From Candidatus Bathyarchaeota archaeon (GTDB taxonomy: Archaea; Thermoproteota; Bathyarchaeia; TCS64), in NCBI GenBank assembly GCA_963780545.1, contig CAWACK010000016.1:92149-156148 (forward strand): a stretch of DNA of 64,000 nucleotides, written 5' to 3'. Both the position numbers and the translations under genes were made by a program. The notes under the pieces were generated by a model. That model ran no database searches and was not told the origin of the DNA. It saw only the letters and a list, made by a program, of their open reading frames with translations. Of the stretch, positions 7,286-26,175 are shown piece after piece; within the stretch, counting starts at the first letter, position 1; every line of letters begins with the position of its first letter.

Positions 7286-7372
7286 CTGTTATTAATTGAT
7301 GAGAGATAGGTAATATCCTTTTTCTCTATATGTGTAACGTGTGCGCCACCATATCGCGCATTTGAAAGGTTC

Positions 7373-7798
7373 TTATTTTTTCAGCTTCTTCGTGGTGAAG
7401 GCGTCCATGAGCTTCGTTCCTACTGCATGGTATGTGCCTGTGGAGGAGGTGAAGATTATTGGCTTCACCTTCTCGATGTCTATTGCTCCTTTCTCGTTTA
7501 GGACTCTTTCATCGGCTTTGACATCTATGATCTCGCCCACAAATTCGGTGTGGAGACCTAGCTCTAAAATATCCTTTACGCGGCACTCGATTACGACTGG
7601 GAACTCTTCAACATATGGAGCATCGACCTTGCTTCCTCTTACTGGTGTGAGGTGTGCCATCGCAAATTTGTCGGTGTCGCGTCCGGAAGATAACCCTATC
7701 CAATCCGCCTCCATGACATGCCGCTCGGATGGTATGCTCATCACAACTATGTTGCGCAATTCAAATTTGTTGAAAACATCAAAGCCTCGCCTCCCCAC
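7373..7798 (-). pseudogene. Flavin reductase-like (Flavin_Reduct / FMN-binding split barrel) gene, C-terminal fragment; its 5' part, upstream of 7740, is derived from the inserted island
   Basis: From ...SIPSERHVMEADWIGLSSGRDTDKF... to ...HTEFVGEIIDVKADERV... it matches the C-terminal half of flavin reductase domain proteins. The N-terminal half lies 4 kb away at 11745-12008 on the same strand. Confidence 0.6.
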
Positions 7799-7900
7799 AC
7801 GCGAGAAAATTCGACCCCCTTTACTATGATATTATATATAAAAGGGGTAGTAAAAAAACAAAATTTAGTTATTATGCGTTATCGGGACATTTAGTATTAT

Positions 7901-8365
7901 TTGATTTTTATGTTTTGCCTTAATTCCTCATATGCAATACTTCACACTATAATCAATCAAGTGTTGCACAATTTGGTGAAGCGCGGTAGAAAAGCGAAGA
8001 TAACCGCCGAGATTTTTATAAATGTTGTAAAGAAGAAGCGAACATTATCTGATTCAGTTTTATGTGAAGTTCTAGGAATCAATAGATCCACCATTTACAG
8101 ATTTAAAATGAATAATCCAATTATTATAAAAGAGATGGATGATTTTATCAAGCAATATGAGAATGTAGTATTTAATGGTAAAGTAAGTATAGATGTATTT
8201 TATAACATATCAGAAATAAAAGATTGGATTGAGATACTTAAACAAAGGCAAGTTAGTTCTAGAGAGATACAAACATCAGTTAGGTCTTTATATAATGTAT
8301 GTAACGCTTTACAGGTTCCTCCTAAAAATCTGAATGTGGAATTAGTAAGTAACTTTAGTGAATAA
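7901..8365 (+). CDS. Small HTH DNA-binding protein of the island (excisionase/regulator-like)
   Basis: 154 aa. The segment ...RTLSDSVLCEVLGINRSTIYRFK... is a classic helix-turn-helix. It sits just upstream of the integrase. Confidence 0.45.
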   Translation: MIFMFCLNSSYAILHTIINQVLHNLVKRGRKAKITAEIFINVVKKKRTLSDSVLCEVLGINRSTIYRFKMNNPIIIKEMDDFIKQYENVVFNGKVSIDVFYNISEIKDWIEILKQRQVSSREIQTSVRSLYNVCNALQVPPKNLNVELVSNFSE

Positions 8366-8502
8366 TATAAAAATGCTGAAAAGAGATGGTTTAGAAGTAC
8401 CTAATGGATTGGCTTATACATCAATTAGAAGTGCAATTAGAAGCTTCTTTACATTAGTGTTAGGCATTAGTGGTGAGATACTAGTCCGCTAAAGGAATTG
8501 AT

Positions 8503-9215
8503 ATGAGTGCTAGTGAAGGAAGCGGATTATTCAGCAAAGAGAGAGTTACATCAGAACAAAGAAATATATTAGAGAATAGTTTAAAGACTGTAATAGAAAA
8601 GGCTTCAAATGGTGGAATTGAATATATTAATAAAAGATGGAAAACAAAATATAATTATTATAAATCTTATATGTTATCCCAGATATATGATGAATTATTA
8701 TCTCTGTGTCAATTCTGCTATTATACAGGTACTAGAAAAACGGCTGCAATAGTAACGACTAATTTATCAAATCAAAGAATAAATATACTAAAAAAGTTTG
8801 GACAATAAATATTCTAGATAAAGGGAAAAAGGGCGGTCATAAATGGGAGAAAATATTGACTGATTGGAGTCTAATTACTTTCAGGGAATATGTGAAAAAA
8901 CGATTCAATGTAACTGACGATATATTAGAGGAAAAAGTAAGAGAATTAGGTCTAGCTTTTCCATCTGCGTATAAGAGAGAACATAGTCATAAAGATATTT
9001 CAACCATAATAAGGATAGCTCTACATCTGGCTGGTAAAGACACTGAAATACCTACACATATATGGAGGCATACATTTGCACAAGATGGATTAGAGGCAAC
9101 AAATTATAATTATGAATTAATAGCGTCATTAGGTGGATGGGAGTCAACAACAATATTAAAGAAACATTACGGTAATATGTCGGATTTAGCTAAATTAAAT
9201 GGATTAAACGAATGA
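8503..9215 (+). pseudogene. Tyrosine recombinase / integrase (XerC/D-like), split into two ORFs (8503-8808, 8856-9215) by a frameshift in a G3A5G3 run
   Basis: The first ORF ends ...CYYTGTRKTAAIVTTNL, where TG-x-R is the first catalytic Arg box. The second has HIWRHTFAQ (H-x-x-R box) and LGGWESTTILKKHYGN (catalytic Tyr). The frames differ by one, and the gap contains gggaaaaaggg. Confidence 0.6.
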
Positions 9216-10161
9216 TGGGAATAGAGATAAAAGAGGAAAAGCCTAGACCTCTAAAATGGTGATTAGATAAAAGATGTATTTTTAAGGAATCAACTGAGAT
9301 ATTCGCGCGCGCGAAGTTTCTGAATAAAATCACAGTTAATATATTATTAGTGTTATTAAATTTATATATTCAATGACGTTATTTTTCATTACGATGATTA
9401 ATAACGAATAAGGGTAAAACGATCTAAGGTTAGGTCATTGAGGTGCTTCTTGAGTACTTTATTTGTTGTAATTATAGTGATTCTTATTTCGCGCTATTTT
9501 CAATTTTTAGCAAATTACCCCCAACCATGGCTAAATAGTCACAGACGGCTCTGAGATCAAAAGTAGTAAAAAATAATTTAGAACTGTGATCGTTCACCAT
9601 CGAGGTCCTAGGAGACGCTGGTTCGCGAGTCATCAGGTTCAATTTTCGACTCGTAAATCTCAGTGATGGCAATTACAGCTCTTCACACTGGGTACAACTA
9701 ATTCGACATGTACCTTTATTCTATTTTCGGGGGAGGCTCAAACAAGTAAATAAGCCTTACTAATTCCGAGCCAATGGTTAGTATCGTAGTCATCATTCCA
9801 CCGGGTGTAGATTACACATGGCAGTTCACCTGGACTGAGTGAGTCGTTGAGTATGATCGATCTTCTTCTACCTGGCCACTATAATATTACTGGAGTACTA
9901 CATCCGGGATCAAATATAATGATAGAGACCCCAAAGACTAAGTCTAAATCTCGATACTATGAAACTATAATTATAAAAAATAATTTCTATTTTCAAGACG
10001 AATAAGGATAATTATAGAACGAGGTTTCAGATTAACCTCTAAATCCCCGTTTTTCCTATCCTTGGATATTTCGCGCGCAGCTTGGAGAGCTGTATCGGAG
10101 GAGATCCAAGGGCTTTTCGATCAATATTTATATTAATTTTAAATTTAACTAGGATCTAGAT

Positions 10162-10431
10162 TCACTTTAAATTATTCAAAATAGTTTTTCCTTTAGCTGT
10201 TAAGCAAGTTCTTTTCAATGAATGACTATAAAATATCATATCTCTTTTATATAACATTCTTTTATTGCCTACATTAATGTTATAATGTAATCCTTTATCT
10301 AATTTATTTAATTCTTCTTTATTGTAATTAACTAAATTGATATCACTAATATATTCAATTTCTTTTAATGAATCTATTTCAATTAATCCTATATTTACGC
10401 TTAACCCTCTTCCCATAATTCCTCTAGTCAT
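10162..10431 (-). CDS. Hypothetical island protein
   Basis: 89-aa ORF in AT-rich DNA with no recognisable motif. Confidence 0.25.
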   Translation of the reverse strand: MTRGIMGRGLSVNIGLIEIDSLKEIEYISDINLVNYNKEELNKLDKGLHYNINVGNKRMLYKRDMIFYSHSLKRTCLTAKGKTILNNLK

Positions 10432-10549
10432 TAAATATTAATAGAGTTTGATGCGCTTATGCTTTTCGATTGAAATAGTTTAGATAAATGCTACCAGTTA
10501 TCAGATGACTTTTATCCTCTAAGCTTCATCGGTGGTACTATGATGCAAT

Positions 10550-10792
10550 TTATTCTTTCTTTTTATTCTCCTTTTTAATATTTGGTTTATGTCGATTATA
10601 TTTTCTCCATTCAATTATAAAATGTTCTGATACACCAGATATTTCATGAATTTCAATATCTGTTTTACCATAAGCATACAAACGTGTTATTTCTTTAATC
10701 TCATATTTAGGATTTCGAGGATATCCATTTCTATATATCCATGATTGTTTCATTCTTTTAATCATAGATGATTTAAGATATTCATTTTCCAA
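10550..10792 (-). CDS. Small HTH-containing island protein
   Basis: 80 aa. ...GKTDIEIHEISGVSEHFIIEWRKYN is HTH-like. It is basic and K-rich. Confidence 0.4.
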   Translation of the reverse strand: MENEYLKSSMIKRMKQSWIYRNGYPRNPKYEIKEITRLYAYGKTDIEIHEISGVSEHFIIEWRKYNRHKPNIKKENKKKE

Positions 10793-10895
10793 GTCACCAT
10801 GAAAATATAGAGATGCTATTTCTTTAATTAATTTACTTGTAGGCCAATATCTATGTTTTTCCTTTAATGTAGATTCTTTATTACTTTTATTAGAA

Positions 10896-11231
10896 TTAGG
10901 TTTTAATGGACATACTATTTCTCCATTGCTGTATTGTACTATATGGTATATCTAGCTTATTAGCTATTTTAATATCTGAATAGCCTCTTAGATAAAGTTT
11001 AATTCTTTCAGCATTTTCCATTGCTTGCTTATATTCATGTTCTTTATATTTTATTGGATTGTATTTAACTTTATAATTACGCTTAATTTCAAGGTGTCGC
11101 ATTCTCCATCTATACATTGATGGTTGAGATACACTACATCGTTTAGCAACTTCAGTATCGGTTAGACCTTCTGAATATAGTTCTATTCTCTTATCATTTT
11201 CCTCTGCTGTAATTCGTGGCGTTTTATTCAT
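10896..11231 (-). CDS. HTH DNA-binding protein with two HTH-like segments (sigma-70 region-4 / transposase-N-terminal-like)
   Basis: The two segments are ...LTDTEVAKRCSVSQPSMYRWRMRH... and ...YSDIKIANKLDIPYSTIQQWRN.... The repeat cluster lies immediately upstream at 11399-11530. Confidence 0.5.
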   Translation of the reverse strand: MNKTPRITAEENDKRIELYSEGLTDTEVAKRCSVSQPSMYRWRMRHLEIKRNYKVKYNPIKYKEHEYKQAMENAERIKLYLRGYSDIKIANKLDIPYSTIQQWRNSMSIKT

Positions 11232-11398
11232 CTTTCTTTTCAGTCTCCTTTATCCAAATTGAAGGCGCGCACTGGCTGGAATTATTCAATCTAAGCTGTA
11301 TGAGGTATTAAAATATTAGTAGACTTAAAGATGCATTTTTTAATCGAGTTGAAAGTATATTTAGGGCTAAATTCTTGATAAGAGTGTGGATATTTACA

Positions 11399-11530
11399 CC
11401 TAGAGTTGACGGATATCCAGCGTCTACAATCCTAGAGTTGACGGATAACCAGTAAACTGGGGCGAATTAGGGGTTAAAATGCCTTGATTCCTAGAGTGGT
11501 GGTTATCCATTTCTAGAGTGGCTGTAACGT
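11399..11530. repeat. Iteron-like repeat cluster: CCTAGAGTTGACGGATA(T/A)CCAG x2 plus two CTAGAGTGG partial copies; GGATAACC / GGTTATCC inverted pair
   Basis: The direct copies are at 11399-11420 and 11431-11452. CTAGAGTGG half-sites are at about 11491 and 11513. ggataacc in copy 2 is the reverse complement of ggttatcc at about 11502. Confidence 0.5.
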
Positions 11531-11614
11531 AGCGCATTTATGATTTAGAAGCTATTATAAATGACTCTTTAACCAAGAGGAAACATTTTAGGGGGTAAAA
11601 ATTTTAGCCTTCTA

Positions 11615-11693
11615 GGAGGCTCGGTATACCCAAAATAATTATGCACACAATTTGCAACATCTAGATAGTGCGTAATGAGGCTCTTCGGTATAC
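11615..11693. repeat. Second direct-repeat pair GAGGCTC(TT)CGGTATAC near the island's right end
   Basis: ggaggctcggtataccc is at 11615-11631 and gaggctcttcggtatac at 11677-11693. Both lie about 100-160 bp from the right junction core, as expected for arm-type recombinase sites. Confidence 0.4.
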
Positions 11694-11744
11694 AACGATA
11701 TGCCATATAAAGGATCCATTTGCCAAAAGGGGCATAAATAAGGC

Positions 11745-12008
11745 TCAAACAAAATTAACACTTTTATGTAAATTTATTATGCTCACCGTGTACGCTCTTC
11801 TCAACATAATGTTCCCATGGCTGTAGGTTGCTTTCCTTAGACTCACATAGATGCAGGGTGGGCGAGAATTACAAATGCCTCCCCATGCTGCTGTCATTAT
11901 GTTTGGTTTCCCTGAAGCATCATAGGTTCCTACAACCCAGACTGGCGAAGGAAGTGTATATGTCCCAGCACCTAGTGACTTCTTCGAACCTTTAATCCCC
12001 ATTTCCAT
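11745..12008 (-). pseudogene. Flavin reductase-like gene, N-terminal fragment (3' end past ~11786 replaced by island sequence)
   Basis: ...[59 protein letters not shown]... is the conserved N-terminal half of the Flavin_Reduct domain. The ORF then terminates 13 codons into AT-rich island DNA. Confidence 0.6.
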
Positions 12009-12167
12009 TTCTACATACCTTCAAGCACTATGCCTTATTGAGAGTCTTTGATAACCTCATTGTAAAAATTACGAATACACCTTTCGCGTGTAAATGCTGC
12101 AATATTCGCTATAGTGGACCCATTTACATTCTAATATTAGTGTTACAAAAAATAAGATGGATCAACC

Positions 12168-13190: not shown

Positions 13191-13577
13191 ATGACCGCTC
13201 CTGATGATCAGCTAGCTAGTGAAAGAAAGGATCCCGCTTCAAGCAGCAGAAACGTGATCGATTGGGTTACATTCTCAAGAAAAAGAGGTCTTGGGATGTG
13301 GGCTTGGATGCTGCAAAGGTTGTCAGCCATTATACTAATCGTATGTGGAATTCTTCACATTATGGATAACCAATTTGGATTCATAATCCCTGGGGGAGAT
13401 TTCGTGACAGTGGATTTACTGGTGTTCTCATTCGCATTCCATACTTTCAATGGCGTCCGTGTTATGTTGATTGAATCTGTGGGATTACTAGCGAAGTACG
13501 AGAAGGCTCTCTTTTACCTAGTTATCCTCGGTGAACTAGTCTTTGTGTTTTGGTGGGCATTTACAGTCGGTCTATGA
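13191..13577 (+). CDS. sdhC: Succinate dehydrogenase membrane anchor / cytochrome b-like subunit (SdhC-like); alternative TTG start at 13122
   Basis: Hydrophobic helices (...WAWMLQRLSAIILIVCGILHI...) lie immediately upstream of sdhA and overlap it by 4 nt. Confidence 0.55.
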   Translation: MTAPDDQLASERKDPASSSRNVIDWVTFSRKRGLGMWAWMLQRLSAIILIVCGILHIMDNQFGFIIPGGDFVTVDLLVFSFAFHTFNGVRVMLIESVGLLAKYEKALFYLVILGELVFVFWWAFTVGL

Positions 13578-15289
13578 GGTATTACACATTGGATAGGCAC
13601 GAGATCATTGTTGTAGGCGGAGGATTATCCGGTTTAAGGGCAGCCATCGAAGCTAAGATCCGAGGCGCTGATGTTGCTATTCTATGTGAAACATATCCGA
13701 TGAGGTCGCATTCAGTGGCGGCGCAAGGCGGGATAAATGCCTCATTGGGGAACTCAGATCCATCAGACAGCGTCGAGAAGCATGCGTTTGATACGGTAAA
13801 AGGGTCTGATTACCTAGCGGATCAAGATTCAGTTATTGAACTCTGTGAGGACGCGATTATCAGGGTTCGAGAGCTAGATGCTTGGGGTTGTCCTTTCAGT
13901 AGGTACGATGATGGTAGAATCGCACAAAGACCGTTTGGGGGGGCCGAGTTCCCCCGAACTTGTTTCGCTGCCGATAAGACTGGCCACGCAATCACACACA
14001 CAGTTTATCAGCAGGCTCTGAGACTTGGCGTCGTTATCCTCAACGAGAAGATTGCCCTTCGCCTAGCGGTAGATGCGGTTGGGGTTCGAGGTTTGGTTGC
14101 TCTTGATTTAAAGAGTGGTCAAATTGAATCATTACAGGCGAAAGCCGTTATTATTGCCACAGGTGGCGCAGGTAGAGTCTATTCTCGTACAACCAATGCG
14201 CATCAGAGTAATGGATACGGAATCGCTATGGCAAGTTGGGCCGGGGTACCTATAGAGGATATGGAGTTTGTGCAATTCCATCCTACAACACTCTTGGGAA
14301 GCAACATCCTCATCACTGAGGCGGCGAGAGGGGAAGGAGGATTGCTCTACAATGCTTCTGGGGAACGTTTCATGCAGAGATATGCACCAGAGAAGATGGA
14401 ACTTGCCCCCAGAGACATCGTGGCACGAGCGATTTGGAGGGAGATCCTCGAGGGCAGAGGCTTCGAAGGTGGTTATGTCAATTTGGACATAACACATCTT
14501 GGAGAACAAACGATAATGAAGAAATTACCCCAAATACAGGAACTTGCCTTAAGGATGGCTGGTGTTGACGCCACGAAAGAGCCGATTCCTGTACAACCAG
14601 GTCAACACTACACCATGGGGGGCATTGAGACAGATTCCGTTGGTCGAACTCGGTTATCCGGATTGTTCGCTGCCGGTGAATGTGCATGTGTGAGTATTCA
14701 CGGTGCCAATCGACTCGGTGGGAATTCGCTCTTAGATTGTCTCGTCTTCGGAGCTAGGGCAGGATATGCTGCAGCTGGGTCCTTAAAGGAGTCACAATTT
14801 GGAGGAGAAGCCGCCATAGAAAAAGCATCGAAGCATGTAGATTCTCTAATCAAGTCACTGATCAAGCGCGGGTCCGAAGAAGGCAGCGTAAATCATCATC
14901 ATATTCGTAAAGAGCTTCAAAGCGTCATGTGGGAAGATGCAGGTATATTCAGAGACGGGGATAGGTTGACTAATGGGTTATCGAAGATCAAGCTTCTCAA
15001 AGAGAATTTTTACAGCAATTCTGGAGTATCTAGGGAACATGGTTCCTTCAACCTCGATTTAGTCGACGCCCTGATGTTATCAGGGATGCTTGACGTATCT
15101 TTAGCAATAGTTGGAGGCGCTCTGTTGAGACGGGAGAGCAGGGGGAGCCACTACAGGTTAGACTATAACAAGAGGAACGACGAAGAGTGGCTAAAACATA
15201 CACTAGCCTTCCATACAAGTGAGGGGCCGCGTTTCGAATACAAGCCCGTTCAACTTTCTAGGTGGTCCGTTAAAGAGAGGGAGTACTAA
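13574..15289 (+). CDS. sdhA: Succinate dehydrogenase / fumarate reductase flavoprotein subunit
   Basis: It has an FAD Rossmann motif (HEIIVVGGGLSGLRAAIEA), the covalent-FAD region (RSHSVAAQGGINA), an HPTTL motif and a C-terminal LRRESRGSHYR motif. The ORF listed from 13550 most plausibly starts at ATG 13574. Confidence 0.9.
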   Translation: MRYYTLDRHEIIVVGGGLSGLRAAIEAKIRGADVAILCETYPMRSHSVAAQGGINASLGNSDPSDSVEKHAFDTVKGSDYLADQDSVIELCEDAIIRVRELDAWGCPFSRYDDGRIAQRPFGGAEFPRTCFAADKTGHAITHTVYQQALRLGVVILNEKIALRLAVDAVGVRGLVALDLKSGQIESLQAKAVIIATGGAGRVYSRTTNAHQSNGYGIAMASWAGVPIEDMEFVQFHPTTLLGSNILITEAARGEGGLLYNASGERFMQRYAPEKMELAPRDIVARAIWREILEGRGFEGGYVNLDITHLGEQTIMKKLPQIQELALRMAGVDATKEPIPVQPGQHYTMGGIETDSVGRTRLSGLFAAGECACVSIHGANRLGGNSLLDCLVFGARAGYAAAGSLKESQFGGEAAIEKASKHVDSLIKSLIKRGSEEGSVNHHHIRKELQSVMWEDAGIFRDGDRLTNGLSKIKLLKENFYSNSGVSREHGSFNLDLVDALMLSGMLDVSLAIVGGALLRRESRGSHYRLDYNKRNDEEWLKHTLAFHTSEGPRFEYKPVQLSRWSVKEREY

Positions 15290-15290
15290 A

Positions 15291-16034
15291 ATGGCTATGA
15301 AATTTAAATTAAATGAAGCTGAGAACGTTGAGTTCCTGGTTTACAGGTTTGACCCCCTCAAGGATAAAAGACACTACTACGTGATTTACGATGTACCTTT
15401 CCATAGGGGAATGACCGTTTTAGATGGTCTCCTATATGTTCTAGAGGAACTTGATCCAACAATTTCGCTTCGATACAGCTGCAGATTCAAAGTCTGTGGG
15501 TCTTGTGCTATGATGATTAATGGCTTACAGCGGTTAGCCTGTGAGACGCAGGTGTCCAATTTAGGTAAGCGCATTAAGGTTGAGCCCCTCGCACACTTCA
15601 AAGTCATTAAAGACTTGGTGGTGGATATTGAGCCATTCTTGGAAAAGATGAATGCAGTGAAACCCTGGGTTAATCCAAAAACTTGGCTAGAGCCCCCAAG
15701 GGTTACACCATTGGAGTTGGCGAGGTACCTTTCCCCCTCCGATTGCATTTGGTGTGGCGCATGTATGTCTGCCTGCCCAATCGTTGGCACCGAACCATAT
15801 TATTTGGGGCCTGCTCCCCTCGTTCAACTCTTCAGGTTTAATGTCGATGAGAGGGAGCTCGTTGAGGAGAAGTATCTTAGACTCCTGGTCGCGGATAGCG
15901 ATCTATCTGGGGTTTGGAGGTGTCATCAGGTTTTTGCTTGCACGACTGTTTGTCCGAAGAACATTGATCCTGGTCGTCACATCGCTGAGTTGAAGAGGAT
16001 GGTTGTGAAAAACCGGTTTAAGGGCAATATTTAG
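15291..16034 (+). CDS. sdhB: Succinate dehydrogenase iron-sulfur subunit
   Basis: Cys clusters are present for the [2Fe-2S] (CRFKVCGSCAMMING..C), [4Fe-4S] (CIWCGACMSACP) and [3Fe-4S] (CHQVFACTTVCP) centres. ATG at 15291 lies 1 nt after the sdhA stop. Confidence 0.9.
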   Translation: MAMKFKLNEAENVEFLVYRFDPLKDKRHYYVIYDVPFHRGMTVLDGLLYVLEELDPTISLRYSCRFKVCGSCAMMINGLQRLACETQVSNLGKRIKVEPLAHFKVIKDLVVDIEPFLEKMNAVKPWVNPKTWLEPPRVTPLELARYLSPSDCIWCGACMSACPIVGTEPYYLGPAPLVQLFRFNVDERELVEEKYLRLLVADSDLSGVWRCHQVFACTTVCPKNIDPGRHIAELKRMVVKNRFKGNI

Positions 16035-19177: not shown

Positions 19178-22100
19178 TTAATTTGTGGCTATTGATAGGA
19201 TTTCTCCTATCTGACTTATTCTCTTTTCACCTAGCATTTCCTCCATCTCCGACTCGAGTATTTTGTTGGTTTTCGTTGTCTGTCTAGCCCAGAAGATGTT
19301 GACGGTTTCCAATAATAGGGATTCTCGGCTTAGACCCATAGAGTGGCTTAGAATAAGTAACATCGCTGCCTGTATCTCCTCCGATGAAATGTATTCGAGG
19401 GGCCTGATCTCCGCTTCGGACCCGTTCACAGGGATCCTCACTTTGATTGCTGTGGAGTTGTTGGGCCAGAGGAATTCTCCGCGTCTTTGAAATCTGCCTT
19501 TTTTAATCATATCCTCAATCGTCGCCCAGTAAGCTTTGTGGAAGGAGGACGGGGCAGGTCTTAGGTTGATAGCCTTGTTAATACGTTTGAATGCGTACTC
19601 TTGGTGTATAGGTCCCTCTATATGGACTAGTTTAGGTAGCAGATTTCTTAGTTCGAGGTGGTAAAGGTCTAGGTAGAGTTCTCTTTGACTTTGGGGAATT
19701 TTGTTGAAGGTTTGTCTTGGCTCGAGGGATGCTCTCAGGTACGGCTCCGAGCCGGGGAGTTCATCACTTCTTTTCTCGGTTACTTTTTGTTCAAGGATTC
19801 TTTTTTTTTGAGCGGTTCTCTTGAGTTGGCTGCTTTCGGGGCGTTTTTCGTATGTTTCAGCCCACTTGAGTGCTTGGTCGAGGCGCTGTATCTCGGTTGA
19901 TCGTCTCTGAACCCACTCGGGCGACCAAATTCTATGGAGGTTCCACCCCATTCCTTCGAGTACCTGAGCTCTGAGTCTGTCCCTGTCCCTCGCTGTCGCT
20001 GTTGATCGGTAGCCCTCGCCATCGAGGATTATTCCGAGTATGAACTTCTCAGGGTTCTCAGGAACCTTTACACCTATGTCTACTCTCAGTGAGCTTTCCC
20101 CAACCTGGAGCACTGCCACGTAGCCGAGTCTGCGGATCTCTTCAGCGACTTCTTTCTGTATTTCTGATTGTATTGTCACTTCTCCTTCTAGTTTCTCAGG
20201 TTTTGTTGTCTGCTCCGTGTATGCCAGATAGTTGTGCAGACATTTCACTCCAAAGGATTTTGTTGAGGATAAGTCGATGTCACTTGACTTGATGGAGCTA
20301 ACAAGTATAACCTTCTCGCGTGCCCTCGTCACAGCGACGTTCAGCCTGCGCTCCCCGCCCTCCATGTTTAGTGGGCCGAAGTTCATGGTCATGACGCCTC
20401 CCTTATCATAACCATATCCCACGCTGATCACCATGACATCTCTCTCATCTCCTTGAACGTTCTCGAGGTTCTTGACGAAGAAACCTCGGAGGCGGTCCTC
20501 CTGCAGGAGCTTCCCATACTCGGGGCTCTTAGCTAAGCGGGTCTCGATCTCGTCCTTTACTGTGTTCATCTGGCTGATGCTGAAGGTCATGACTCCGAGG
20601 GATTTTTCTGGGTGCTCTTTTAGTTGTCTGAACACGATGTCAGCAACCACTTCTGCCTCCCTCAAATTGTTGCGAGCCCCTCCGCGGTCGTAGACTCCGT
20701 CTGGAACATATGTGAACTCTATTCCGAGTCCGCCTCCCTTATCAGTGGCTGAGGGGAATAGGATGAGTTTGTCGTCGTAGAACTCCCTGTTTGAGAATAC
20801 GATGAGTGAGTCGTGTTTGCTCCTGTAGTGCCAGCGAAGCATGCTGACTGGGAGTCCCATTCCCATACACTCGTCCAGGACGCTGTCATAGACCCCCACT
20901 TCGTCGCTTGCCTCCTCCCACTCGAAGTCATTTTCAGCAACGTACTGGAAAAATGGTGTAGGTGGTAGCTGCTTGTTGTCGCCGGCCACAATCAGTGTGT
21001 CCCCCCTGTATATGGATCCCACCGCGTCCTCGGTGAATATCTGTGAAGCCTCGTCGAAGACTACGAGGTCAAAATGTAGCCGCTCGGGGAGGATGAACTG
21101 GCTAACGGAGATAGGGCTCATAAGGAGGCAGGGTTTAAGCCTTCGAATGAGGTTGGGTATTCTGTTGAAGAGGTGGCGGAGTGGCATCTGCCTCCGCTTC
21201 TTGGCCGCCTCCTTGAGGAGGATGGTAATCTCAGAGTCGGGGGCCTCAACGAAGACTCCTTGGGGCTTTTTAGTGTTAGCTGCTTCGATGACTTTTTTCG
21301 GCGACTCCTCTATCAGTCTTGCGTCGAGGGATCTGAAGTCATCGACTGCCTGATCATGTTCCTTCGACCTGAAAGAGCCAAGATTTGAGTCCTCCTCCGC
21401 GAAGTGGTTTAGGAGGCCGCTGTAGATGGATTTCCTGTAGATGTCGATTAGTAGTTCTCTGTTGTACTTCTTCTCAACGAGTTCTTTGACGAGGTTTCCT
21501 AGTCCCTCTTCTATGAGTCTCTTAAATGAATTATTGTAATCGACCCAAGCTTGAAGATCATCTATCCTTTGGGCAAGTTTCTTCGAGACGAGTAAAACCT
21601 CATCGACACTGAGGCTCTGGGCTCGTTTATCCCAGAGGGGGTAGCTGAATCTTGAGTTCAGTTCGTCGATTAGACGATAAATTTCTCGGAGGTGCTTCTG
21701 GGTCTCAAGTTTGGGTCTCCCAAGTGCGGGGTCGGTGGCGAAGTTGATGGTTTCCGCTGAAGGCTTCAGCGGTAGTGCCTGCAGGAGGCTGCGTGTCCAG
21801 TTTATGGCTCCAATTACCTTCAGCCAGTCGGTGGAAACCCCCTCATAGAGTCTCCCATACGTCTCTCTTTGTTGGGGAGCCAGCTCAACTTCAGCTTCCT
21901 CGAAGACTCGTAGCATTTCCGTCTTCCTGATGTCTGAGAGGAGCCGGGAGAGGGTCTTCGGGGGGTCTATGATCGCTGTAATGAGGGCAGGTTGAATGTT
22001 TTCTCGGAGGATGTCTAATCGTTTGTTGAGCTCAACAGCCCATTCTTTCAGGTGATGCAACTGAATGTTCATAATCCTAGTTTCTTCGCCTGGAAGATTC

Positions 22101-24724
22101 TCAGGTAGGATCACACGCAACGGTTTTTGGGCTGCTCTCCAGCTCTGAAGTGAATTGCCTAAGCTTTGGGATTTGGTAAGGAGTTCTTCACTCGGTTTCG
22201 TGGCGACGCAGAGGTTGTCTTTCAGCAACTTCGGGGCCCTTGAGGCGCCTATAAGGCGCAGGGTCTCCCTAGCGGTCTTCATGGCTTCTCCGATCACTTC
22301 GAAGTCAGGGTTCTCTTCCTTGTAGTAGGACCCTAGTCTGCTTTTGGCTTCATCTTGCTCGGAGGCGATTGTTTTTGTCAGCTCCTTCAGCTCTGATGCC
22401 ATCTTGAGGTCCTGTAGGATTTTGGTTGGTATCTCGCCAGTCTTTGTTACTCTTGATATTTCGCGTCTGATGTTGTAGTAACTCGGTCTCAGGTACCTAA
22501 GGGGGGATGACCCTGGTCCCTCAAAGAAAGTAATCAAGGTTTGAAGATCTAGGGTTGTGATCTCGTCTTTGTAGGCGGCTAGTTTTACCCTGAGTTCGTC
22601 TCTTCTCCGGTGTTCTGTCTTGGCTTTATCGAGATATTTCTCCGCCTGTTCAAGGCTCGTTTTGTCGAGCCAACTTCTTTCAGGTCTGATGGTTGCTTTA
22701 CAGAACTCTGTGATGCGTTGGAGTCGCCTTGCCCTGTTGATTGTCTGTGGGTCGGTGGGTAGTCCGAGGATCTCTGAGATCTTTTCTATTTGTTCCCCCC
22801 ATCCGTCAGCGTCCCTTATTGTTTGGTCTAGGAATTTACCTAGGTCGTCTATTCGTTTTAGGAGGCCCCCGTCACCCTTCGGGTTGGGTTTGAGGAGCTC
22901 GGCGGCCCTCTTCCACGTTTCCTCGACTCTGTCGGCCGTACCTCTTGGGAGTGCCCTGAATCTGTTGTCGTATCTGCTTTCAAGGTTGGCTCGTATGGTC
23001 CAGTACTCGTCCCACGCCCGCTTATGCGCTTCAGCCTCAAGCTGGAGTTTGGTGAGGTCCGTGTCCTGGAGCCATCTTGATGGGGGGTAGGGTGTGGATT
23101 CGATGATTTTTGCAAGTTTCTGGGTTGAGTCGTAGTCGTCGAGGCTCTTCGGAGCTTCGAGTTTGAGCTTTTCGCAGTAATAGTGGGTTTCCAGGCTGAG
23201 CTGTTTAGTTGAGTCGATTAGTGTGGTGAGCAGGTTGGTCCACTCGGTGCGGACATCTATAGTGTATGTTGTAGATTTGCAGCCTTTCCAAGGGAAAGAT
23301 GTGCCCTCCTCTACAACGACCCAAGAGTTCAGGAGGTGCCTCAACTGTTCCTCAAGGCCGAAGATGTTCTTCTGGTCGAGGGTGCTGAAGCTCGGGTAAC
23401 CAGATGGGATGTCTGGAATTGACTCGAGCTTGGAGATCTCGTTCAAGAGCTTGTAAGCACTTGTGTTTGATGGTTGCCTCGTCTTGTGTAGGGCCTCTAC
23501 GTAGGTGTTTAGCTGGGTTCTTCTATGCTTCAGTCGGTCTATCTCATCCTCGCTCATCCCTTTGCCGGGTTTTAGGTGCTCCGTGAGGGCCCTGCTTAAT
23601 TCGTTGATGACTTCGCGTTTATTCGCCTTATAGCTATGGAGTTCGAGACAGTATTCGTCGAGGTCTTTTTCCTTCAGACGGTTGTAGACTACCTCGAGGG
23701 CTGCCATCTTCTCGCTAACGAATAGAACACTTCTGCCGGCGGCGATGTATTCGGATATTATGTTAGCTATTGTCTGGCTCTTTCCCGTGCCTGGTGGGCC
23801 GTGCATCACATAGGATTGTCCCCTGAGTGCGTACTGGATGCAGAGTTGTTGGCTGCTATCAGCATCCAAAATCTGGAATGTTTTGCCGGGGTCCACGACG
23901 GTGTCCAGGTCCTCAACACTCGGTAGGCCTTTCTGGATGAGTCCCTCTACGGGTACACCGGCTAAGGCTCTAAGTGTGGGGTGTTCTGTGATGCGGCTTA
24001 GGTTGTCAGTCAGATCTTGATAAATAGCGAGTTTGGCGAAGCTGAAGAGTCCGAGGTATACGGTGGGCTCAACTGTCCACCCAAGTTCCTTCACGACTTC
24101 TTGAATGGCTGCCAGGTAGCTTGATGGTGTCTGCTCCTCTTCCTCTGGGAGGGTTGGGAGGTCAACACTGTGCTCGTACTTCAGCTTTAGCATTAAGGCT
24201 GGGTTGACGAGTATCTCATCCTCTATTGGTGGTATTTTGATCTGGTATGGTTCCCGTGTTGAGTCTCTGGTGAGTTCGACTGGGGTCAGAAGCAGGGGTG
24301 ATACGACTTCCTGTTTAGTATCCTTCTCTGTCCACTTCAACTGCCCGAATGTTATGTAGAGGATCCTTATGCCTCGTTCTGTGTACTCTGATTGGGAGCG
24401 TCTGCTCAGGTTTCTCAGGGTTCTGTCGAGCTGGTTTGGATCGGACCAGCCCGGTGTGATCTCTGTGCTCTTCGGCGGCCTAATTTTGGGCGGCGTATCT
24501 CCAGGCCTCGTAAGGGGAGGTTGCCTGATCTCCCAGCCTCTCCCCCTTACTACGAGTCGGCCGTACACTGTTTCCATATCTGGGGAGACTATTGTGAGGT
24601 GTGAGGTCTTGGTTGGTTGGAAGTAGATCGCCTTGTTCCTCTTTGTTAGGTCTATTAAGCGGAGCTTCCAGTCCTCTACGCGTCTGGCTACCCTAAGGGA
24701 TTCTGGAGATTCCAAGAAGACCAT
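19178..24724 (-). CDS. Giant DUF4011 / SF1 (Upf1-like, AAA_11+AAA_12) helicase / Vsr(DUF559)-like endonuclease / DUF3320 protein with ~700-aa coiled-coil insertion; Hhe-like candidate defence protein
   Basis: 1848 aa. The N-terminal 290 aa are DUF4011-like (...ILYITFGQLKW...SPLLLTPVEL...). Walker A is VMHGPPGTGKSQT, motif II DLVVFDEASQI, motif III TLIVAGDNKQLPPT, and motifs V/VI are ENVQGDERDVMVISVGY and RLNVAVTRAREKVILVSS. A PD-(D/E)xK/Vsr-like segment (...LRVDIGV...ILDGEGYRSTATARDRDRLRAQVLEGMGWNLHRIWSPEW) follows. The C-terminal 250 aa are DUF3320-like. Confidence 0.85.
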   Translation of the reverse strand: MVFLESPESLRVARRVEDWKLRLIDLTKRNKAIYFQPTKTSHLTIVSPDMETVYGRLVVRGRGWEIRQPPLTRPGDTPPKIRPPKSTEITPGWSDPNQLDRTLRNLSRRSQSEYTERGIRILYITFGQLKWTEKDTKQEVVSPLLLTPVELTRDSTREPYQIKIPPIEDEILVNPALMLKLKYEHSVDLPTLPEEEEQTPSSYLAAIQEVVKELGWTVEPTVYLGLFSFAKLAIYQDLTDNLSRITEHPTLRALAGVPVEGLIQKGLPSVEDLDTVVDPGKTFQILDADSSQQLCIQYALRGQSYVMHGPPGTGKSQTIANIISEYIAAGRSVLFVSEKMAALEVVYNRLKEKDLDEYCLELHSYKANKREVINELSRALTEHLKPGKGMSEDEIDRLKHRRTQLNTYVEALHKTRQPSNTSAYKLLNEISKLESIPDIPSGYPSFSTLDQKNIFGLEEQLRHLLNSWVVVEEGTSFPWKGCKSTTYTIDVRTEWTNLLTTLIDSTKQLSLETHYYCEKLKLEAPKSLDDYDSTQKLAKIIESTPYPPSRWLQDTDLTKLQLEAEAHKRAWDEYWTIRANLESRYDNRFRALPRGTADRVEETWKRAAELLKPNPKGDGGLLKRIDDLGKFLDQTIRDADGWGEQIEKISEILGLPTDPQTINRARRLQRITEFCKATIRPERSWLDKTSLEQAEKYLDKAKTEHRRRDELRVKLAAYKDEITTLDLQTLITFFEGPGSSPLRYLRPSYYNIRREISRVTKTGEIPTKILQDLKMASELKELTKTIASEQDEAKSRLGSYYKEENPDFEVIGEAMKTARETLRLIGASRAPKLLKDNLCVATKPSEELLTKSQSLGNSLQSWRAAQKPLRVILPENLPGEETRIMNIQLHHLKEWAVELNKRLDILRENIQPALITAIIDPPKTLSRLLSDIRKTEMLRVFEEAEVELAPQQRETYGRLYEGVSTDWLKVIGAINWTRSLLQALPLKPSAETINFATDPALGRPKLETQKHLREIYRLIDELNSRFSYPLWDKRAQSLSVDEVLLVSKKLAQRIDDLQAWVDYNNSFKRLIEEGLGNLVKELVEKKYNRELLIDIYRKSIYSGLLNHFAEEDSNLGSFRSKEHDQAVDDFRSLDARLIEESPKKVIEAANTKKPQGVFVEAPDSEITILLKEAAKKRRQMPLRHLFNRIPNLIRRLKPCLLMSPISVSQFILPERLHFDLVVFDEASQIFTEDAVGSIYRGDTLIVAGDNKQLPPTPFFQYVAENDFEWEEASDEVGVYDSVLDECMGMGLPVSMLRWHYRSKHDSLIVFSNREFYDDKLILFPSATDKGGGLGIEFTYVPDGVYDRGGARNNLREAEVVADIVFRQLKEHPEKSLGVMTFSISQMNTVKDEIETRLAKSPEYGKLLQEDRLRGFFVKNLENVQGDERDVMVISVGYGYDKGGVMTMNFGPLNMEGGERRLNVAVTRAREKVILVSSIKSSDIDLSSTKSFGVKCLHNYLAYTEQTTKPEKLEGEVTIQSEIQKEVAEEIRRLGYVAVLQVGESSLRVDIGVKVPENPEKFILGIILDGEGYRSTATARDRDRLRAQVLEGMGWNLHRIWSPEWVQRRSTEIQRLDQALKWAETYEKRPESSQLKRTAQKKRILEQKVTEKRSDELPGSEPYLRASLEPRQTFNKIPQSQRELYLDLYHLELRNLLPKLVHIEGPIHQEYAFKRINKAINLRPAPSSFHKAYWATIEDMIKKGRFQRRGEFLWPNNSTAIKVRIPVNGSEAEIRPLEYISSEEIQAAMLLILSHSMGLSRESLLLETVNIFWARQTTKTNKILESEMEEMLGEKRISQIGEILSIATN

Positions 24725-24837
24725 CCCTCTTTGAACGGAATAGTTACCCTCATCGAATAAGACTTTATACGGCGGGGCATACCGAAAGCAATCATTTATC
24801 GTAATGAATTACTTCATGGTGAGCGCGTGACTGCCAT

Positions 24838-26175
24838 TTACCTTTTGCTCAGTTTCTCCAGTGGAATCCTCGGCGTATCGTTGTACTTATAACCTCCAGG
24901 TGGGGTCCATCCGCCAAATTCAGCCATAGCTTTACCCAGCCAGTGACCTGAGGGCTTCTCAGGATTGAAGAGAGAGTGGCAGAAGGCTGATTCATCATCC
25001 GACACTGGGGGAAGCAGTAGCTCGTACTCCTTAGATCCAACGCCGAGCACGCTGCATGTGTTTGGGGTAATCCACTGACTCATACCTATTATGCCAGTGA
25101 ACTTCTCCTGCCCCGGCTCCATCACGCCTTTCTCTTCGGCTACTGAACCTGGAATCCCGTGGGCCTGCACGGACATGTCAAGAGCCGCTAAATCTATAGA
25201 GACGATGTCCCTTGAGGAGAAAACTCCGAGGTTCGGGATAACGGGTCTATCGGAGCCTGGTACGCAGTCGCATGCGGGGGCTATATCGAGGGCGTAGGTG
25301 ATGTAGCCAACGTGCTCCCTGCCTATGTGGCGGAGGTAACCGGCAGCGGCATCTCCCATGGCCACGAGGAACCAGTTTCTCCAATCCTCATATTTTTCCC
25401 TACCCCATAGATCGCATCTGAATAGGGGTCTCTGGTGGCCAAAACAGCCTATGCACTTCAATCCATCCCAGGTGGCTCTGTCTTTAGTAATTTTGAAAGC
25501 CCCAACGGGGCAGAGATTATTGCAGAGGGCAGCGTCGGGGCATTCCTCACCGGGGCAATTCTCCCCGTTGAAGCTCCAAGAGTTCCAGCCAACCTTCTGG
25601 TGGGTGCAGAGATGGACGTTGAATTTACCCCTCTTGGAGCTGCATCCGATGGCGACGTTCTTGATGCTGCCTCCGTAGACTCCGTTGCCGTGGCCTTTGA
25701 AGTGGCTCACAACTATGACGGAGTCGGCGTCTGCGATTCCCTTCGCAAGGTAGCCCTCTTTCAAAAGGAGGCCGTCGGGTATGTCGACTTTGACGTCGTC
25801 GGTGCCGTACATGCCGTCACTTATTATGATGGGGCATCCCATCGTCTCTGACGTGAAACCGTTGCGCGCCGCGGTCTCAAGGTAGAGGTCAGCTGTGCTT
25901 CGAGTCCCATAGTAGTAGTATGGTGCAGTCGTCGTATCGGTTACGAAGGGCCTGCCACCCTTTTCCTTGACCTTGTCGACGATGACTCTTACGAGTATGG
26001 GTCGCAGATAAGCTGAGTTGAACCACTCCCCCATGTGACATTTGATCGCAACCGAGTCCCCTGGTTCAAAACAGTCTCCGAGGCCCGCGTGGTCGAATAG
26101 CTGCATCGCCTTCGCAGGTATGCTCGACGACATCCTCTGGTAGCGATCATCCATAAAGTAAACCTTGCTAACCAT
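24838..26175 (-). CDS. DUF362-domain protein with ferredoxin-like Cys-rich insert (putative Fe-S protein)
   Basis: The N-terminus MVSKVYFMD...VAIKCHMGEW... and ...VIVVSHFKGHGNGVYGGSIKNVAIGCSS fit DUF362. The insert C-x-x-x...CPGEECPDAALCNNLCPVG...CIGCFGH resembles 4Fe-4S ligands. Confidence 0.55.
   Translation of the reverse strand: MVSKVYFMDDRYQRMSSSIPAKAMQLFDHAGLGDCFEPGDSVAIKCHMGEWFNSAYLRPILVRVIVDKVKEKGGRPFVTDTTTAPYYYYGTRSTADLYLETAARNGFTSETMGCPIIISDGMYGTDDVKVDIPDGLLLKEGYLAKGIADADSVIVVSHFKGHGNGVYGGSIKNVAIGCSSKRGKFNVHLCTHQKVGWNSWSFNGENCPGEECPDAALCNNLCPVGAFKITKDRATWDGLKCIGCFGHQRPLFRCDLWGREKYEDWRNWFLVAMGDAAAGYLRHIGREHVGYITYALDIAPACDCVPGSDRPVIPNLGVFSSRDIVSIDLAALDMSVQAHGIPGSVAEEKGVMEPGQEKFTGIIGMSQWITPNTCSVLGVGSKEYELLLPPVSDDESAFCHSLFNPEKPSGHWLGKAMAEFGGWTPPGGYKYNDTPRIPLEKLSKR

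Follow-up and report, generated by a model that had tools for sequence, protein, structure and literature searches.

The locus described here raises the question of whether a single, very large gene of a Bathyarchaeia genome encodes an antiviral protein, and to which known family such a protein would belong. The window, i.e. the whole stretch of 64,000 nucleotides that was analysed, had previously been interpreted from its letters and open reading frames only. In this sequence-only reading, the gene was regarded as a divergent, Hhe-like candidate antiviral gene of an apparently archaeal host, carrying an added DUF3320 domain and a giant coiled-coil insertion. Bathyarchaeia are a very abundant, uncultured sediment lineage, and to our knowledge almost nothing of their immunity has been characterised. 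As set out below, the gene is a fairly ordinary member of the large, already catalogued ProA/PDC-S37 family, with a few lineage-specific quirks.

Gene and domain layout

The single open reading frame was confirmed as real by the ORF list, its translation and a database protein (P0001) with 100% identity. P0001 comprises 1845 aa and starts with a TTG three codons past the ATG, matching the alternative start at 24715; the stop codon lies at 19178–19180. A database search returned 6800 homologs at E ≤ 1e-10. Two upstream elements were read off the sequence, a TATA-box-like stretch and a GAGGG Shine–Dalgarno-like element, which directly precedes the ATG and stands 9 nt ahead of the TTG; they may represent the promoter and ribosome-binding signals of the gene. 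Scans of the whole window for tRNAs and Rfam families gave no matches. The features are as follows (window coordinates, strand):

24760..24775 (−), TATA-box-like GTATAAAG, about 50 nt upstream of the start
19178..24724 (−), whole gene, 1848 aa from the ATG at 24724
23870..24724 (−), N-terminal alpha/beta region (residues 1–285), holding Pfam DUF4011 (22–181; window 24182–24661)
23465..23860 (−), first half of RecA1 (AAA_11, residues 289–420; Pfam), aligning to IGHMBP2 185–253
21335..23437 (−), all-alpha middle module of tandem helical repeats (residues ~430–1130), inserted in RecA1
20900..21277 (−), second half of RecA1 (residues ~1150–1275), aligning to IGHMBP2 361–407
20294..20884 (−), RecA2 (AAA_12, residues 1281–1477), with motif V QGDERD (1424–1429) and motif VI VAVTRAR (1463–1469)
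19868..20158 (−), Vsr-like PD-(D/E)xK-fold nuclease (MTES_1575, residues 1523–1619; Pfam)
19181..19867 (−), K/E-rich linker (1620–1680) followed by a winged-helix region (1681–1848), overlapping a sub-threshold Pfam DUF3320 match

The domain order proposed beforehand, DUF4011, split SF1 helicase, Vsr-like nuclease and a C-terminus weakly matching DUF3320, was correct. Both the DUF4011 and the Vsr-like module were recovered by Pfam (DUF4011 at 22–181, E 8e-29; MTES_1575, a Vsr-family REase, at 1523–1619, E 3.5e-26), along with AAA_11 (289–420) and AAA_12 (1281–1477). The N-terminal region was modelled with pLDDT values of 75–93 and contains the family-wide invariant residues D25, R29, N30, G118, W131, P143, N174, K231 and D237. 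Nothing meaningful was matched when PDB sequences were searched with the DUF4011 profile, and matches of the protein itself to PDB sequences were confined to helicase cores.

The Walker A motif GPPGTGKS was located as quoted before (residues 309–316, window 23777–23800) and is invariant across 113 aligned sequences. The helicase core is indeed split by about 700 aa, the gap lying between Walker A/Ia and motif II. Motifs II to VI had all been assigned to AAA_12; according to the IGHMBP2 alignment, motif II (FDEASQ, 1223–1228, window 21041–21058) and motif III (GDNKQLPPT, 1248–1256) instead sit in the second half of RecA1 (AAA_11), where they are invariant or nearly so in family alignments. All ATPase and helicase motifs of the Upf1-like SF1B core are intact, and the motif set of the Upf1/Dna2/IGHMBP2 group as well as the RecA1/RecA2 fold are present. 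The structural neighbours of the motor are Dna2, Upf1, IGHMBP2, Sen1 and SETX, which places it nearest to the 5′–3′ Upf1-like helicases (Dna2, Upf1, IGHMBP2, Sen1/senataxin).

The middle segment had been described as an unusually long coiled coil, and neither part of this description held. The structure model shows a confidently predicted all-alpha array with internal repeats. Residues 430–1130, used as query, retrieved 518 representatives (50% clustering), 260 of them at E ≤ 1e-10, almost all being proteins of about 1800–1950 aa with the match at the same position; a homologous module thus occupies this place in hundreds of representatives of the family, ProA and Hhe among them, and the alignment to the Hhe profile passes through it unbroken. 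For the C-terminus, the DUF3320 score was 17 bits with the whole protein and 21.6 bits with the isolated C-terminus, both below the Pfam cutoff of 25; the assignment is nevertheless favoured by a ProA-type alignment running through the C-terminus and by structural matches to winged helices. This part is probably not an addition to a known architecture but the ProA-type C-terminus. Judged by the module search and the comparison with bacterial ProA-like proteins, the giant insertion and DUF3320 are therefore the family norm and not signs of divergence.

Family placement and nuclease active site

The protein was recognised by both defence-oriented HMM libraries, PADLOC and NCBIfam, and in both Hhe ranked second, behind ProA or PDC-S37. 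NCBIfam ProA (NF058533) scored 1271.6 bits and NCBIfam Hhe (NF042953) 816.2 bits, their curated equivalog cutoffs being 1500 and 2000, respectively; in PADLOC, PDC-S37 reached 1359 bits and Hhe 528 bits. Since the ProA cutoff was not reached (1272 vs 1500), the protein is not a curated equivalog of this family either. A Ralstonia control protein passed the cutoff (1521.4 bits), other Bathyarchaeia proteins scored 1348–1428, and ProA ranked above Hhe for the relatives from Ralstonia, Vibrio, Halalkalicoccus and other Bathyarchaeia. The classification as Hhe-like thus holds for the superfamily of DUF4011, Upf1-like helicase and Vsr-like nuclease, while the nearest named family is ProA/PDC-S37.

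That the gene is a true Hhe ortholog, the single-gene Hhe system in a diverged archaeal version, is highly improbable. The Hhe hallmarks are present (DUF4011, a split Upf1-like SF1 helicase with intact ATPase motifs, a Vsr-like nuclease after the helicase), the NCBIfam Hhe profile aligns over residues 96–1667 in one stretch (E 6e-245), and the 528 bits obtained with PADLOC Hhe also fit such a reading. The score ranking largely refutes it, as ProA and PDC-S37 score 1.6- to 2.6-fold above Hhe. Furthermore, BLASTP against the annotated Klebsiella Hhe gave alignments only at residues 96–548 and 1057–1604, without similarity past residue 1604, whereas the alignment with the Ralstonia protein that passes the ProA cutoff runs through residue 1845. 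In a crude NJ tree, Hhe was set on a separate long branch, and the Bathyarchaeia clade did not group with it.

NF058533, named "anti-phage protein ProA", is presumably, by its name, the Prometheus of van den Berg et al. 2024 (Cell Host Microbe 32:1427), an identification that, like its reported R-loop mechanism, draws on a secondary citation. Full-text literature searches for ProA, PDC-S37 and Prometheus, which did not cover van den Berg 2024, retrieved secondary mentions only and no paper describing the protein. A homolog search with the Ralstonia protein returned only older names ("DUF3320 domain-containing protein"), so that the ProA label was not independently confirmed.

The nuclease domain departs from the family consensus. 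The strings quoted for it beforehand were found at residues 1566–1604, and its motifs ARDRDRLR (1578–1585) and GWNLHRIWSPEW (1593–1604) are intact. The ProA/PDC-S37 consensus (IDLA...IECDGAxYHS) is not matched by the query (RVDIGV...IILDGEGYRS), in which Glu is changed to Ile, His to Arg, and a new Glu appears at +2; the residues in question are D1549, D1568, E1570 as the acid that has moved, and R1573, which stands where the family has His. The strand motif accordingly reads xxDGE..R and not ExDG..H. Within the query's clade, the canonical Glu at −2 is lost in 53/55 sequences and an acidic residue stands at +2 in 54/55, with D1549 retained in 53/55 and D1568 in 55/55. The sister clade shows the reverse pattern (Glu kept in 53/58; A, S or T at +2 in 50/58). 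The +2 acid is thus specific to the clade that lost the −2 Glu, which points to selection still acting on a two-acid site, and the metal-binding strand appears to have been re-registered from ExD to DxE. The His of the YHS motif, which we take to be aligned with Vsr His69, is Arg in the query and variable across Bathyarchaeia, and nuclease activity is therefore not assured.

A nuclease-dead translocase, in which the Vsr-like domain would merely bind DNA while the motor remodels or displaces its substrate at the expense of ATP, without cutting, was considered as well. It would account for the loss of the Glu of IECDG and of the His of YHS, a pair of losses also seen, independently, in Methanobrevibacter and in one homolog from Planctomycetia, L028 (the Glu is retained in L024, a relative of L028), and for the invariance of the non-catalytic motifs ARDRDRLR and GW..HRIWSPEW. 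However, the +2 acid in 54/55 sequences of the very clade that loses the −2 Glu resembles active-site migration and not decay, and both aspartates are kept. A simply dead nuclease was downgraded once this clade-specific relocation had been found, and is now quite improbable. An apparent deletion of the nuclease domain in the closest GTDB relative (L017) was discarded; the gap is a run of Ns.

Inheritance, neighbourhood and possible function

The archaeal host is not exceptional, since relatives occur, among the matches listed, in Bathyarchaeia, Methanobrevibacter, Methanosarcina, Methanomassiliicoccales and haloarchaea. Relatives were collected by a genome scan (at least 80 loci). In the NJ tree, the Bathyarchaeia proteins form one clade, which splits deeply into two. 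The copies are syntenic within lineages; in clade 2, DUF1638 upstream and HAD downstream were found in 6 loci from several genera. Divergence of the gene is similar to that of its flanks (88.6% vs 82–95.5%). Taken together, monophyly, synteny and flank-like divergence form a pattern of stable inheritance, which is unusual for defence cargo. A viral origin was dismissed, as relatives were present on just 6 of 2.9 million IMG/VR contigs.

Clustering of neighbours over 86 loci revealed no shared neighbour family beyond lineage-level synteny, and a conserved partner or operon was rejected on this ground. Co-transcription with the adjacent DUF362 gene, small ORF and epimerase gene had been suggested; as a conserved trait it does not hold, these neighbours recur only beside the copy of the 89%-identical relative, other genes taking their place in relatives at 81%, 67%, 47% and 42% identity. 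DUF362 adjoins the gene in three loci, probably by chance.

Defence genes of note were not detected among the 123 neighbours (±4 genes) of 17 Bathyarchaeia loci. Only 30 PADLOC models were matched, mostly generic SMC/ABC-type or HTH, and Pfam assigned HAD hydrolases, DUF1638, ferredoxins, thiolases, PheRS and NreA. By contrast, the neighbours of 18 bacterial relatives matched 247 PADLOC models, including BrxHI (E = 0), PDC-S11, SngC, JetA/JetD, AbiD, AbiEii, dGTPase and DRT (BREX, Wadjet, Abi, DRT). DUF262 proteins are encoded beside both the annotated Hhe and a homolog on a Vibrio plasmid; the hhe gene also adjoins a type I RM subunit gene. In Methanobrevibacter intestini, whose genome carries a relative of the gene (L077), "Prometheus" is called by DefenseFinder (PMC13078230). 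The link of the family to defence is drawn from these bacterial neighbourhoods, from the position of Hhe beside RM and DUF262 genes and from the Prometheus call. Uniform housekeeping operons without defence-island association had been named beforehand as evidence against an antiviral function; close homologs indeed show no such association, but share no single conserved housekeeping operon. An antiviral role of the 1848-aa protein is plausible on grounds of homology, though the Bathyarchaeia context lends it no support.

We lean slightly towards a ProA-type (PDC-S37; sister to Hhe) stand-alone chromosomal helicase–nuclease that is fixed in its lineage and most likely directed against invading DNA. 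DUF4011, the helical array and the winged helices would select and hold a nucleic-acid substrate, candidates being R-loops, single-stranded 5′ tails, and intermediates of replication or transcription. ATP hydrolysis would power 5′–3′ translocation or unwinding, and the Vsr-like domain would nick or cut the DNA exposed by the motor. Judging from its homologs ProA and Hhe, the protein would most likely be aimed at a virus or plasmid, and in Bathyarchaeia it may act as a fixed, vertically inherited "core" guardian and not as a mobile defence-island cassette.

A domesticated housekeeping enzyme, i.e. a genome-maintenance helicase–nuclease and not an antiviral factor, is possible but rather unlikely; it might resolve R-loops or replication–transcription conflicts or process flaps and ends (cf. 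eukaryotic senataxin and Dna2). The monophyly with two deep subclades, the synteny over several genera of clade 2 and the metabolic or housekeeping neighbourhood without clear defence genes are what this reading would predict, and Dna2, Sen1 and SETX are the closest structural relatives of the motor. Within 2–9 kb, some loci contain either Mre11/Rad50, DNA ligase and a Rad51-like gene, or else NreA and PolX; these repair genes, however, are several genes away, possibly by chance, and no operon partner or repair-gene linkage is conserved across loci. Every isolate of Pseudomonas aeruginosa carries a large DUF4011 gene, which belongs to the core genes (PMC10250203). For Ralstonia, 105 records match overall, and in most of those listed the homolog occupies about the same megaplasmid place; the rarity on viral contigs fits as well. 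Against this stand the bacterial members, strongly embedded in defence islands, and the differing gene positions among relatives at 89%, 81% and 67% identity, which indicate that the gene has moved. A combination of the two, in which the Bathyarchaeia clade is a defence-derived or defence-ancestral helicase–nuclease that was fixed and repurposed for genome maintenance, its active site sliding from ExD to DxE and the catalytic His being dropped, is a tentative and unlikely proposal.

If the favoured antiviral reading is correct, the host range of the ProA/Hhe class gains Bathyarchaeia, and the DxE, His-less site is a natural variant for probing the Vsr-like domain. As a housekeeping factor, the protein would show a single family in two roles, as mobile defence cargo among bacteria and as a fixed factor of genome maintenance within one archaeal class; as a repurposed one, it would be a prokaryotic analogue of the senataxin/Dna2 class and imply that immune and housekeeping helicase–nucleases interconvert. 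Either way, both the 700-aa middle module and the DUF3320 tail are typical of the family rather than odd, and the annotation should read ProA-like, not Hhe.

Comparison with known systems

Upf1-like SF1B helicases carry their 1B/1C domains within RecA1. An accessory insertion within RecA1 is shared by the protein described here with this eukaryotic and viral group (Dna2, Upf1, IGHMBP2, Sen1/senataxin, Aquarius, ZNFX1). As in Dna2, the motor is joined to a PD-(D/E)xK nuclease; unlike in Dna2, where the nuclease is N-terminal, the Vsr-type nuclease follows the helicase. The likeness is limited to the motor (15–23% identity), and DUF4011, the 700-aa helical-repeat array and the winged-helix tail are absent from the eukaryotic and viral helicases. 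The nuclease belongs to the Vsr/DUF559/MTES_1575 REase-fold domains, a family of Anantharaman et al. 2013 (PMC3710099), and differs from their consensus by replacement of the conserved Glu and His and by an acid two positions after the invariant Asp.

Hhe, reportedly a single-gene system and said to go back to Gao et al. 2020, likewise has a DUF4011 domain, an Upf1-like helicase split by a long middle region, and a nuclease of the Vsr type, and acts as a single gene. Identity to hhe of the Klebsiella pneumoniae plasmid p1GR390 (1911 aa) is 29–35% over the two aligned segments; after the nuclease domain there is no similarity, the C-terminus of Hhe being unrelated to the DUF3320/wHTH region. 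Unlike the query gene, Hhe sits on conjugative plasmids beside type I RM and DUF262 genes. With ProA/PDC-S37, the protein shares the length class of about 1850–1900 aa (bacterial ProA-like proteins 1850–1880 aa), the helical module of about 600–700 aa splitting RecA1, the succession of DUF4011, split SF1B helicase and MTES_1575 nuclease, probably also the DUF3320/winged-helix C-terminus that follows, and the organisation as a single gene without conserved partner. At about 34% identity over alignable parts, it differs in the nuclease strand (IECDGAxYHS there, IILDGEGYRS here) and in its setting, the bacterial relatives lying in defence islands and the Bathyarchaeia copies outside them.

Domain architecture and the helical-repeat module

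The helicase gene was read from the ORF list and the translation as a single, uninterrupted minus-strand ORF of 1848 aa counted from ATG (window 19178–24724). Two candidate starts lie within window 24715–24724, the ATG at 24724 (1848 aa) and a TTG three codons downstream at 24715, the start of the identical database protein P0001 (1845 aa); the TTG is favoured, because a GAGGG element lies 9 nt from it and directly against the ATG. The motifs quoted in the sequence-only reading were found at their places in the query sequence, and Pfam recovered both DUF4011 and the Vsr-like module.

Domains and motifs of the query (gene on the minus strand; Pfam E-values in brackets)
Residues 22–181: DUF4011 (8e-29)
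Residues 289–420: AAA_11 (7.6e-13)
Residues 309–316: Walker A, GPPGTGKS
Residues 430–1130 (window 21335–23437): middle module
Residues 1223–1228: FDEASQ
Residues 1248–1256: GDNKQLPPT
Residues 1281–1477: AAA_12 (6e-16)
Residues 1424–1429: QGDERD
Residues 1463–1469: VAVTRAR
Residues 1523–1619: MTES_1575, Vsr-family restriction-endonuclease fold (3.5e-26)
Residues 1566–1604: ILDGEGYRS...ARDRDRLR...GWNLHRIWSPEW

Walker A and motif II are indeed separated by about 700 aa, as had been claimed, but the split falls within RecA1 (AAA_11) and not between AAA_11 and AAA_12, since alignment to IGHMBP2 placed motifs II and III in the second half of RecA1. The query has an intact Upf1-like SF1B helicase as its motor. 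A model of residues 1131–1848 (mean pLDDT 68.6; RecA2, nuclease and C-terminal domains 75–93) gave senataxin (8ftm) as best Foldseek match. Structural neighbours of the nuclease domain were I-Bth0305I (10.7), the endonuclease-like protein NGO0050 (3hrl, 9.9), Vsr (9.7) and RAP domains, and those of the tail were winged helices (cullin WHB, 9.7; linker histone, 9.4). After the motor comes a Vsr-fold domain in which the two-acid motif is re-registered, and then a tail that is probably of winged-helix type; DUF3320 scored 17 bits with the whole protein and 21.6 bits with the C-terminus alone (Pfam cutoff 25). Anantharaman et al. 2013 (PMC3710099) had already identified MTES_1575 as a REase of the Vsr type with wHTH domains after it that overlap DUF3320. 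For DUF4011, a sequence-profile search of solved structures detected no relative.

The middle module had been regarded as an unusually long coiled-coil insertion. Residues 430–1130 alone were searched against 1.84 billion cluster representatives and yielded 518 matches at E ≤ 1e-3 (260 at E ≤ 1e-10), nearly all of them proteins of ~1800–1950 aa aligned at the equivalent position (roughly 430–1160), and the Hhe NCBIfam profile (1797 positions) runs straight through it, spanning query residues 96–1667 in one stretch; the module is therefore not unusual. The ProA profile has 1903 positions, and bacterial ProA-like proteins are uniformly ~1850–1880 aa. A Sphingomonas/Sphingobium subgroup of these (P0304–P0384) is longer (~2040 aa), with PF04326 (AlbA_2) as an additional domain. 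In 50-residue block means over 113 full-length Bathyarchaeia sequences, identity to the query was 27–49%, so that the segment is less conserved than the motor, yet clearly constrained. An AlphaFold2 model of residues 1–1200, built from a 74-sequence alignment (mean pLDDT 80), showed ~25 helices of 10–35 residues joined by loops in this segment (pLDDT 85–92), and contained none of the >100-residue helices that an SMC-type coiled coil would have. Alignment of sub-segments with hhalign revealed internal repeats between 766–830 and 921–1000 (97.5%, E 7e-12) and between 485–548 and 617–682 (96.2%, E 2e-9), further pairs being weaker. Given the short modelled helices and these repeats, the best description of the module is not a coiled coil but a tandem helical-repeat array with ~130–155 aa per unit, and its sequence suggests that it arose when a helical unit was duplicated in tandem. 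The RecA1 helical-repeat array is a family-wide feature.

The nuclease active site

The nuclease consensus, taken over 86 family members of many phyla, was (F/Y)IDLA...LGIECDGAxYHS...ARDRDRLRQ..LE.LGW.IHRIWS.DW, against which the query reads RVDIGV...LGIILDGEGYRS. Residues were counted in 113 Bathyarchaeia sequences, divided into the query clade (≥45% identity, n = 55) and its sister clade (n = 58).

Clade-specific residues around the invariant Asp (window 20003–20029, minus strand; residues 1566–1574)
Canonical Glu site (−2): query clade M/L/I in 53/55; sister clade Glu in 53/58
Position +2: query clade E/D in 54/55; sister clade A/S/T in 50/58

The two positions covary by clade, ExDG(A/S/T) in the sister clade and (M/L/I)xDG(E/D) in the query clade; by these counts, the aligned sequences indicate that ExD has become DxE with unchanged spacing. 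We regard this shift as a lineage-specific feature of note. The family His, which we take to align with the catalytic His69 of Vsr, is R/K/Q/V in nearly all Bathyarchaeia sequences and kept in 9 of the 113, and Glu and His were both lost independently in Methanobrevibacter homologs and in one Planctomycetia homolog. Among four longer relatives (2040–2260 aa) from Methanobrevibacter/Methanobacteriaceae (L057, L069, L077, L083), three have neither residue (ITTDGKMYAS) and L069 keeps Glu (IETDGKIYAS). Such losses would suit a nuclease-dead translocase, a reading which we consider improbable for the query, where the acidic pair appears to have moved along by two residues, a pattern that suggests a selected migration of the active site, not its decay. 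An apparent nuclease-domain deletion in the closest GTDB relative (L017, Bathyarchaeota RBG_13_52_12) was dismissed, the gap being a 688-base run of Ns (~6900–7600).

Distribution and genomic context

The protein-database search gave 6800 matches at E ≤ 1e-10, of which the best 120 were 40–100% identical and ~1840–1900 aa long, all named ones being from Bathyarchaeota/Bathyarchaeia. A scan of GTDB species representatives located relatives in at least 592 species, comprising many bacterial phyla, Bathyarchaeia, Methanobrevibacter, Methanosarcina, Methanomassiliicoccales and Micrarchaeota. Plasmid records with relatives came from haloarchaea, Ralstonia (105 records, the gene at about the same megaplasmid position in most of those listed) and Klebsiella (241 plasmids, carrying Hhe); 6 of 2.9 million IMG/VR viral contigs had one. 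In a crude neighbour-joining tree without support values, all Bathyarchaeia proteins grouped in a single clade split into two subclades; the sequences closest to this clade were those of Planctomycetota, Obscuribacterales and Sporomusa, and Hhe stood apart on a long branch.

Clustering of neighbours at 86 loci linked no gene family to the helicase across the whole family, and the gene therefore acts as a single gene without conserved partner. Synteny was confined to lineages, as in six Bathyarchaeia clade-2 loci (DUF1638 upstream, HAD downstream) and a neighbour block shared by four to five Chitinophaga species. The window order (epimerase, 111-aa ORF, DUF362, helicase gene, convergent CBS, 2-hydroxyacid dehydrogenase, RraA-like) is conserved in the syntenic contig L003 (helicase 88.6%, flanking genes 82–95.5% identical) and differs in relatives at 81%, 67%, 47% and 42% identity. 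A same-strand DUF362 Fe-S gene is the immediate neighbour at three loci (window 24838–26175; L003 3900–5252; L023 7341–8381), upstream at two and downstream at one (41% identical); as DUF362 is common in Bathyarchaeia, this adjacency is probably coincidence. At window 13550–16034, a class IV aminotransferase gene and a DUF2000-like gene are separated by genes for the flavoprotein and Fe-S subunits of succinate dehydrogenase/fumarate reductase; the two outer genes stand side by side in L003 (13420–14928), indicating a local insertion or deletion.

The proposed co-transcription with DUF362, the small ORF and the epimerase was not borne out. The 113-bp spacer between DUF362 and the helicase gene contains GTATAAAG ~50 nt before the start as well as the GAGGG element, and the upstream genes are not conserved, which argues for a putative transcription unit of its own; read-through from upstream is possible.

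Neighbours (±4) were scanned with PADLOC at 17 Bathyarchaeia and 18 bacterial loci (123 proteins each). The bacterial neighbours matched 247 models, including BrxHI (E = 0), PDC-S11 (1e-150), SngC (3e-115), JetA/JetD, AbiD, AbiEii, dGTPase, DRT and CBASS-type effectors, whereas the Bathyarchaeia neighbours matched 30, mostly generic (Csa3-type HTH; SMC-like AriA/LmuB/DndD, which we infer to stem from Rad50/SMC proteins), the strongest others being mad3 (2 proteins, best E 1e-30), pVip (3e-26) and PDC-S45 (8e-24). By Pfam, the latter neighbours were HAD hydrolases, DUF1638, ferredoxins, thiolases, DUF362, CBS, NreA and PheRS. The sole mobile-element trace in the window, at least ~7 kb away from the helicase gene, is a low-GC patch (7300–12100; GC 0.32 vs ~0.50 elsewhere) with an integrase fragment (8856–9215, PF00589) and transposase-type HTH ORFs (7901–8365, 10896–11231), probably a decayed mobile element; tRNA and Rfam scans of the window gave no match. 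This non-island, vertically inherited context is a further lineage-specific feature of note.

Probable role and comparison with ProA and Hhe

DUF4011 may, together with the helical array and the wHTH tail, pick out a nucleic-acid structure, ATP-driven 5'–3' translocation would then uncover DNA for the nuclease, and foreign DNA is the probable target by homology with ProA and Hhe. We lean slightly towards a surveillance/antiviral protein. A domesticated genome-maintenance enzyme is less probable, albeit a serious alternative: it would suit the non-island setting, and repair genes lie a few kb from the helicase gene in distant Bathyarchaeia (DNA ligase, a Rad51-like gene and Mre11 + Rad50 at L006/L013, 1–7200; PolX and NreA at L005/L011, 400–9000), a loose linkage that is suggestive at most and possibly due to chance, while the defence genes beside bacterial relatives point towards the antiviral role.

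Profile scores of the query and of control homologs
PADLOC, query: PDC-S37 (best) 1359 bits; Hhe 528 bits; no cutoffs given for either
NCBIfam, query: ProA NF058533 (best) 1271.6 bits, cutoff 1500; Hhe NF042953 816.2 bits, cutoff 2000
ProA, Ralstonia megaplasmid homolog: 1521 bits, above cutoff
ProA, Vibrio plasmid homolog: 1391 bits
ProA, Halalkalicoccus homolog: 1364 bits
ProA, two other Bathyarchaeia proteins: 1348 and 1428 bits

The query belongs to an already known family. The earlier assignment as Hhe-like is corrected to ProA-like, just under the curated equivalog threshold as judged by the profiles, on the basis of the library ranking, the controls (ProA outranked Hhe in every one) and the C-terminal alignment. 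The insertion and DUF3320, formerly taken as marks of divergence, are hallmarks of the family. ProA presumably denotes the 'Prometheus' system; a secondary source (PMC13078230) names van den Berg et al. 2024 as its origin and calls it R-loop-dependent. The same source gives a DefenseFinder call of Prometheus in Methanobrevibacter intestini, and this fits, as the genome of that species contains a relative of the query gene (L077). For Hhe, phage genetics suggest a response to phage DNA-metabolism gene functions, not to one trigger protein (bioRxiv 10.1101/2024.10.10.617714). One annotated hhe gene (1911 aa), from a Klebsiella IncF plasmid, adjoins type I RM and two DUF262 genes. True Hhe orthology is very improbable: the Hhe profile does span most of the query, but far below its cutoff, and Klebsiella Hhe aligned only with query residues 96–548 and 1057–1604, whereas Ralstonia ProA aligned over 116–433 and 1048–1845, C-terminus included.
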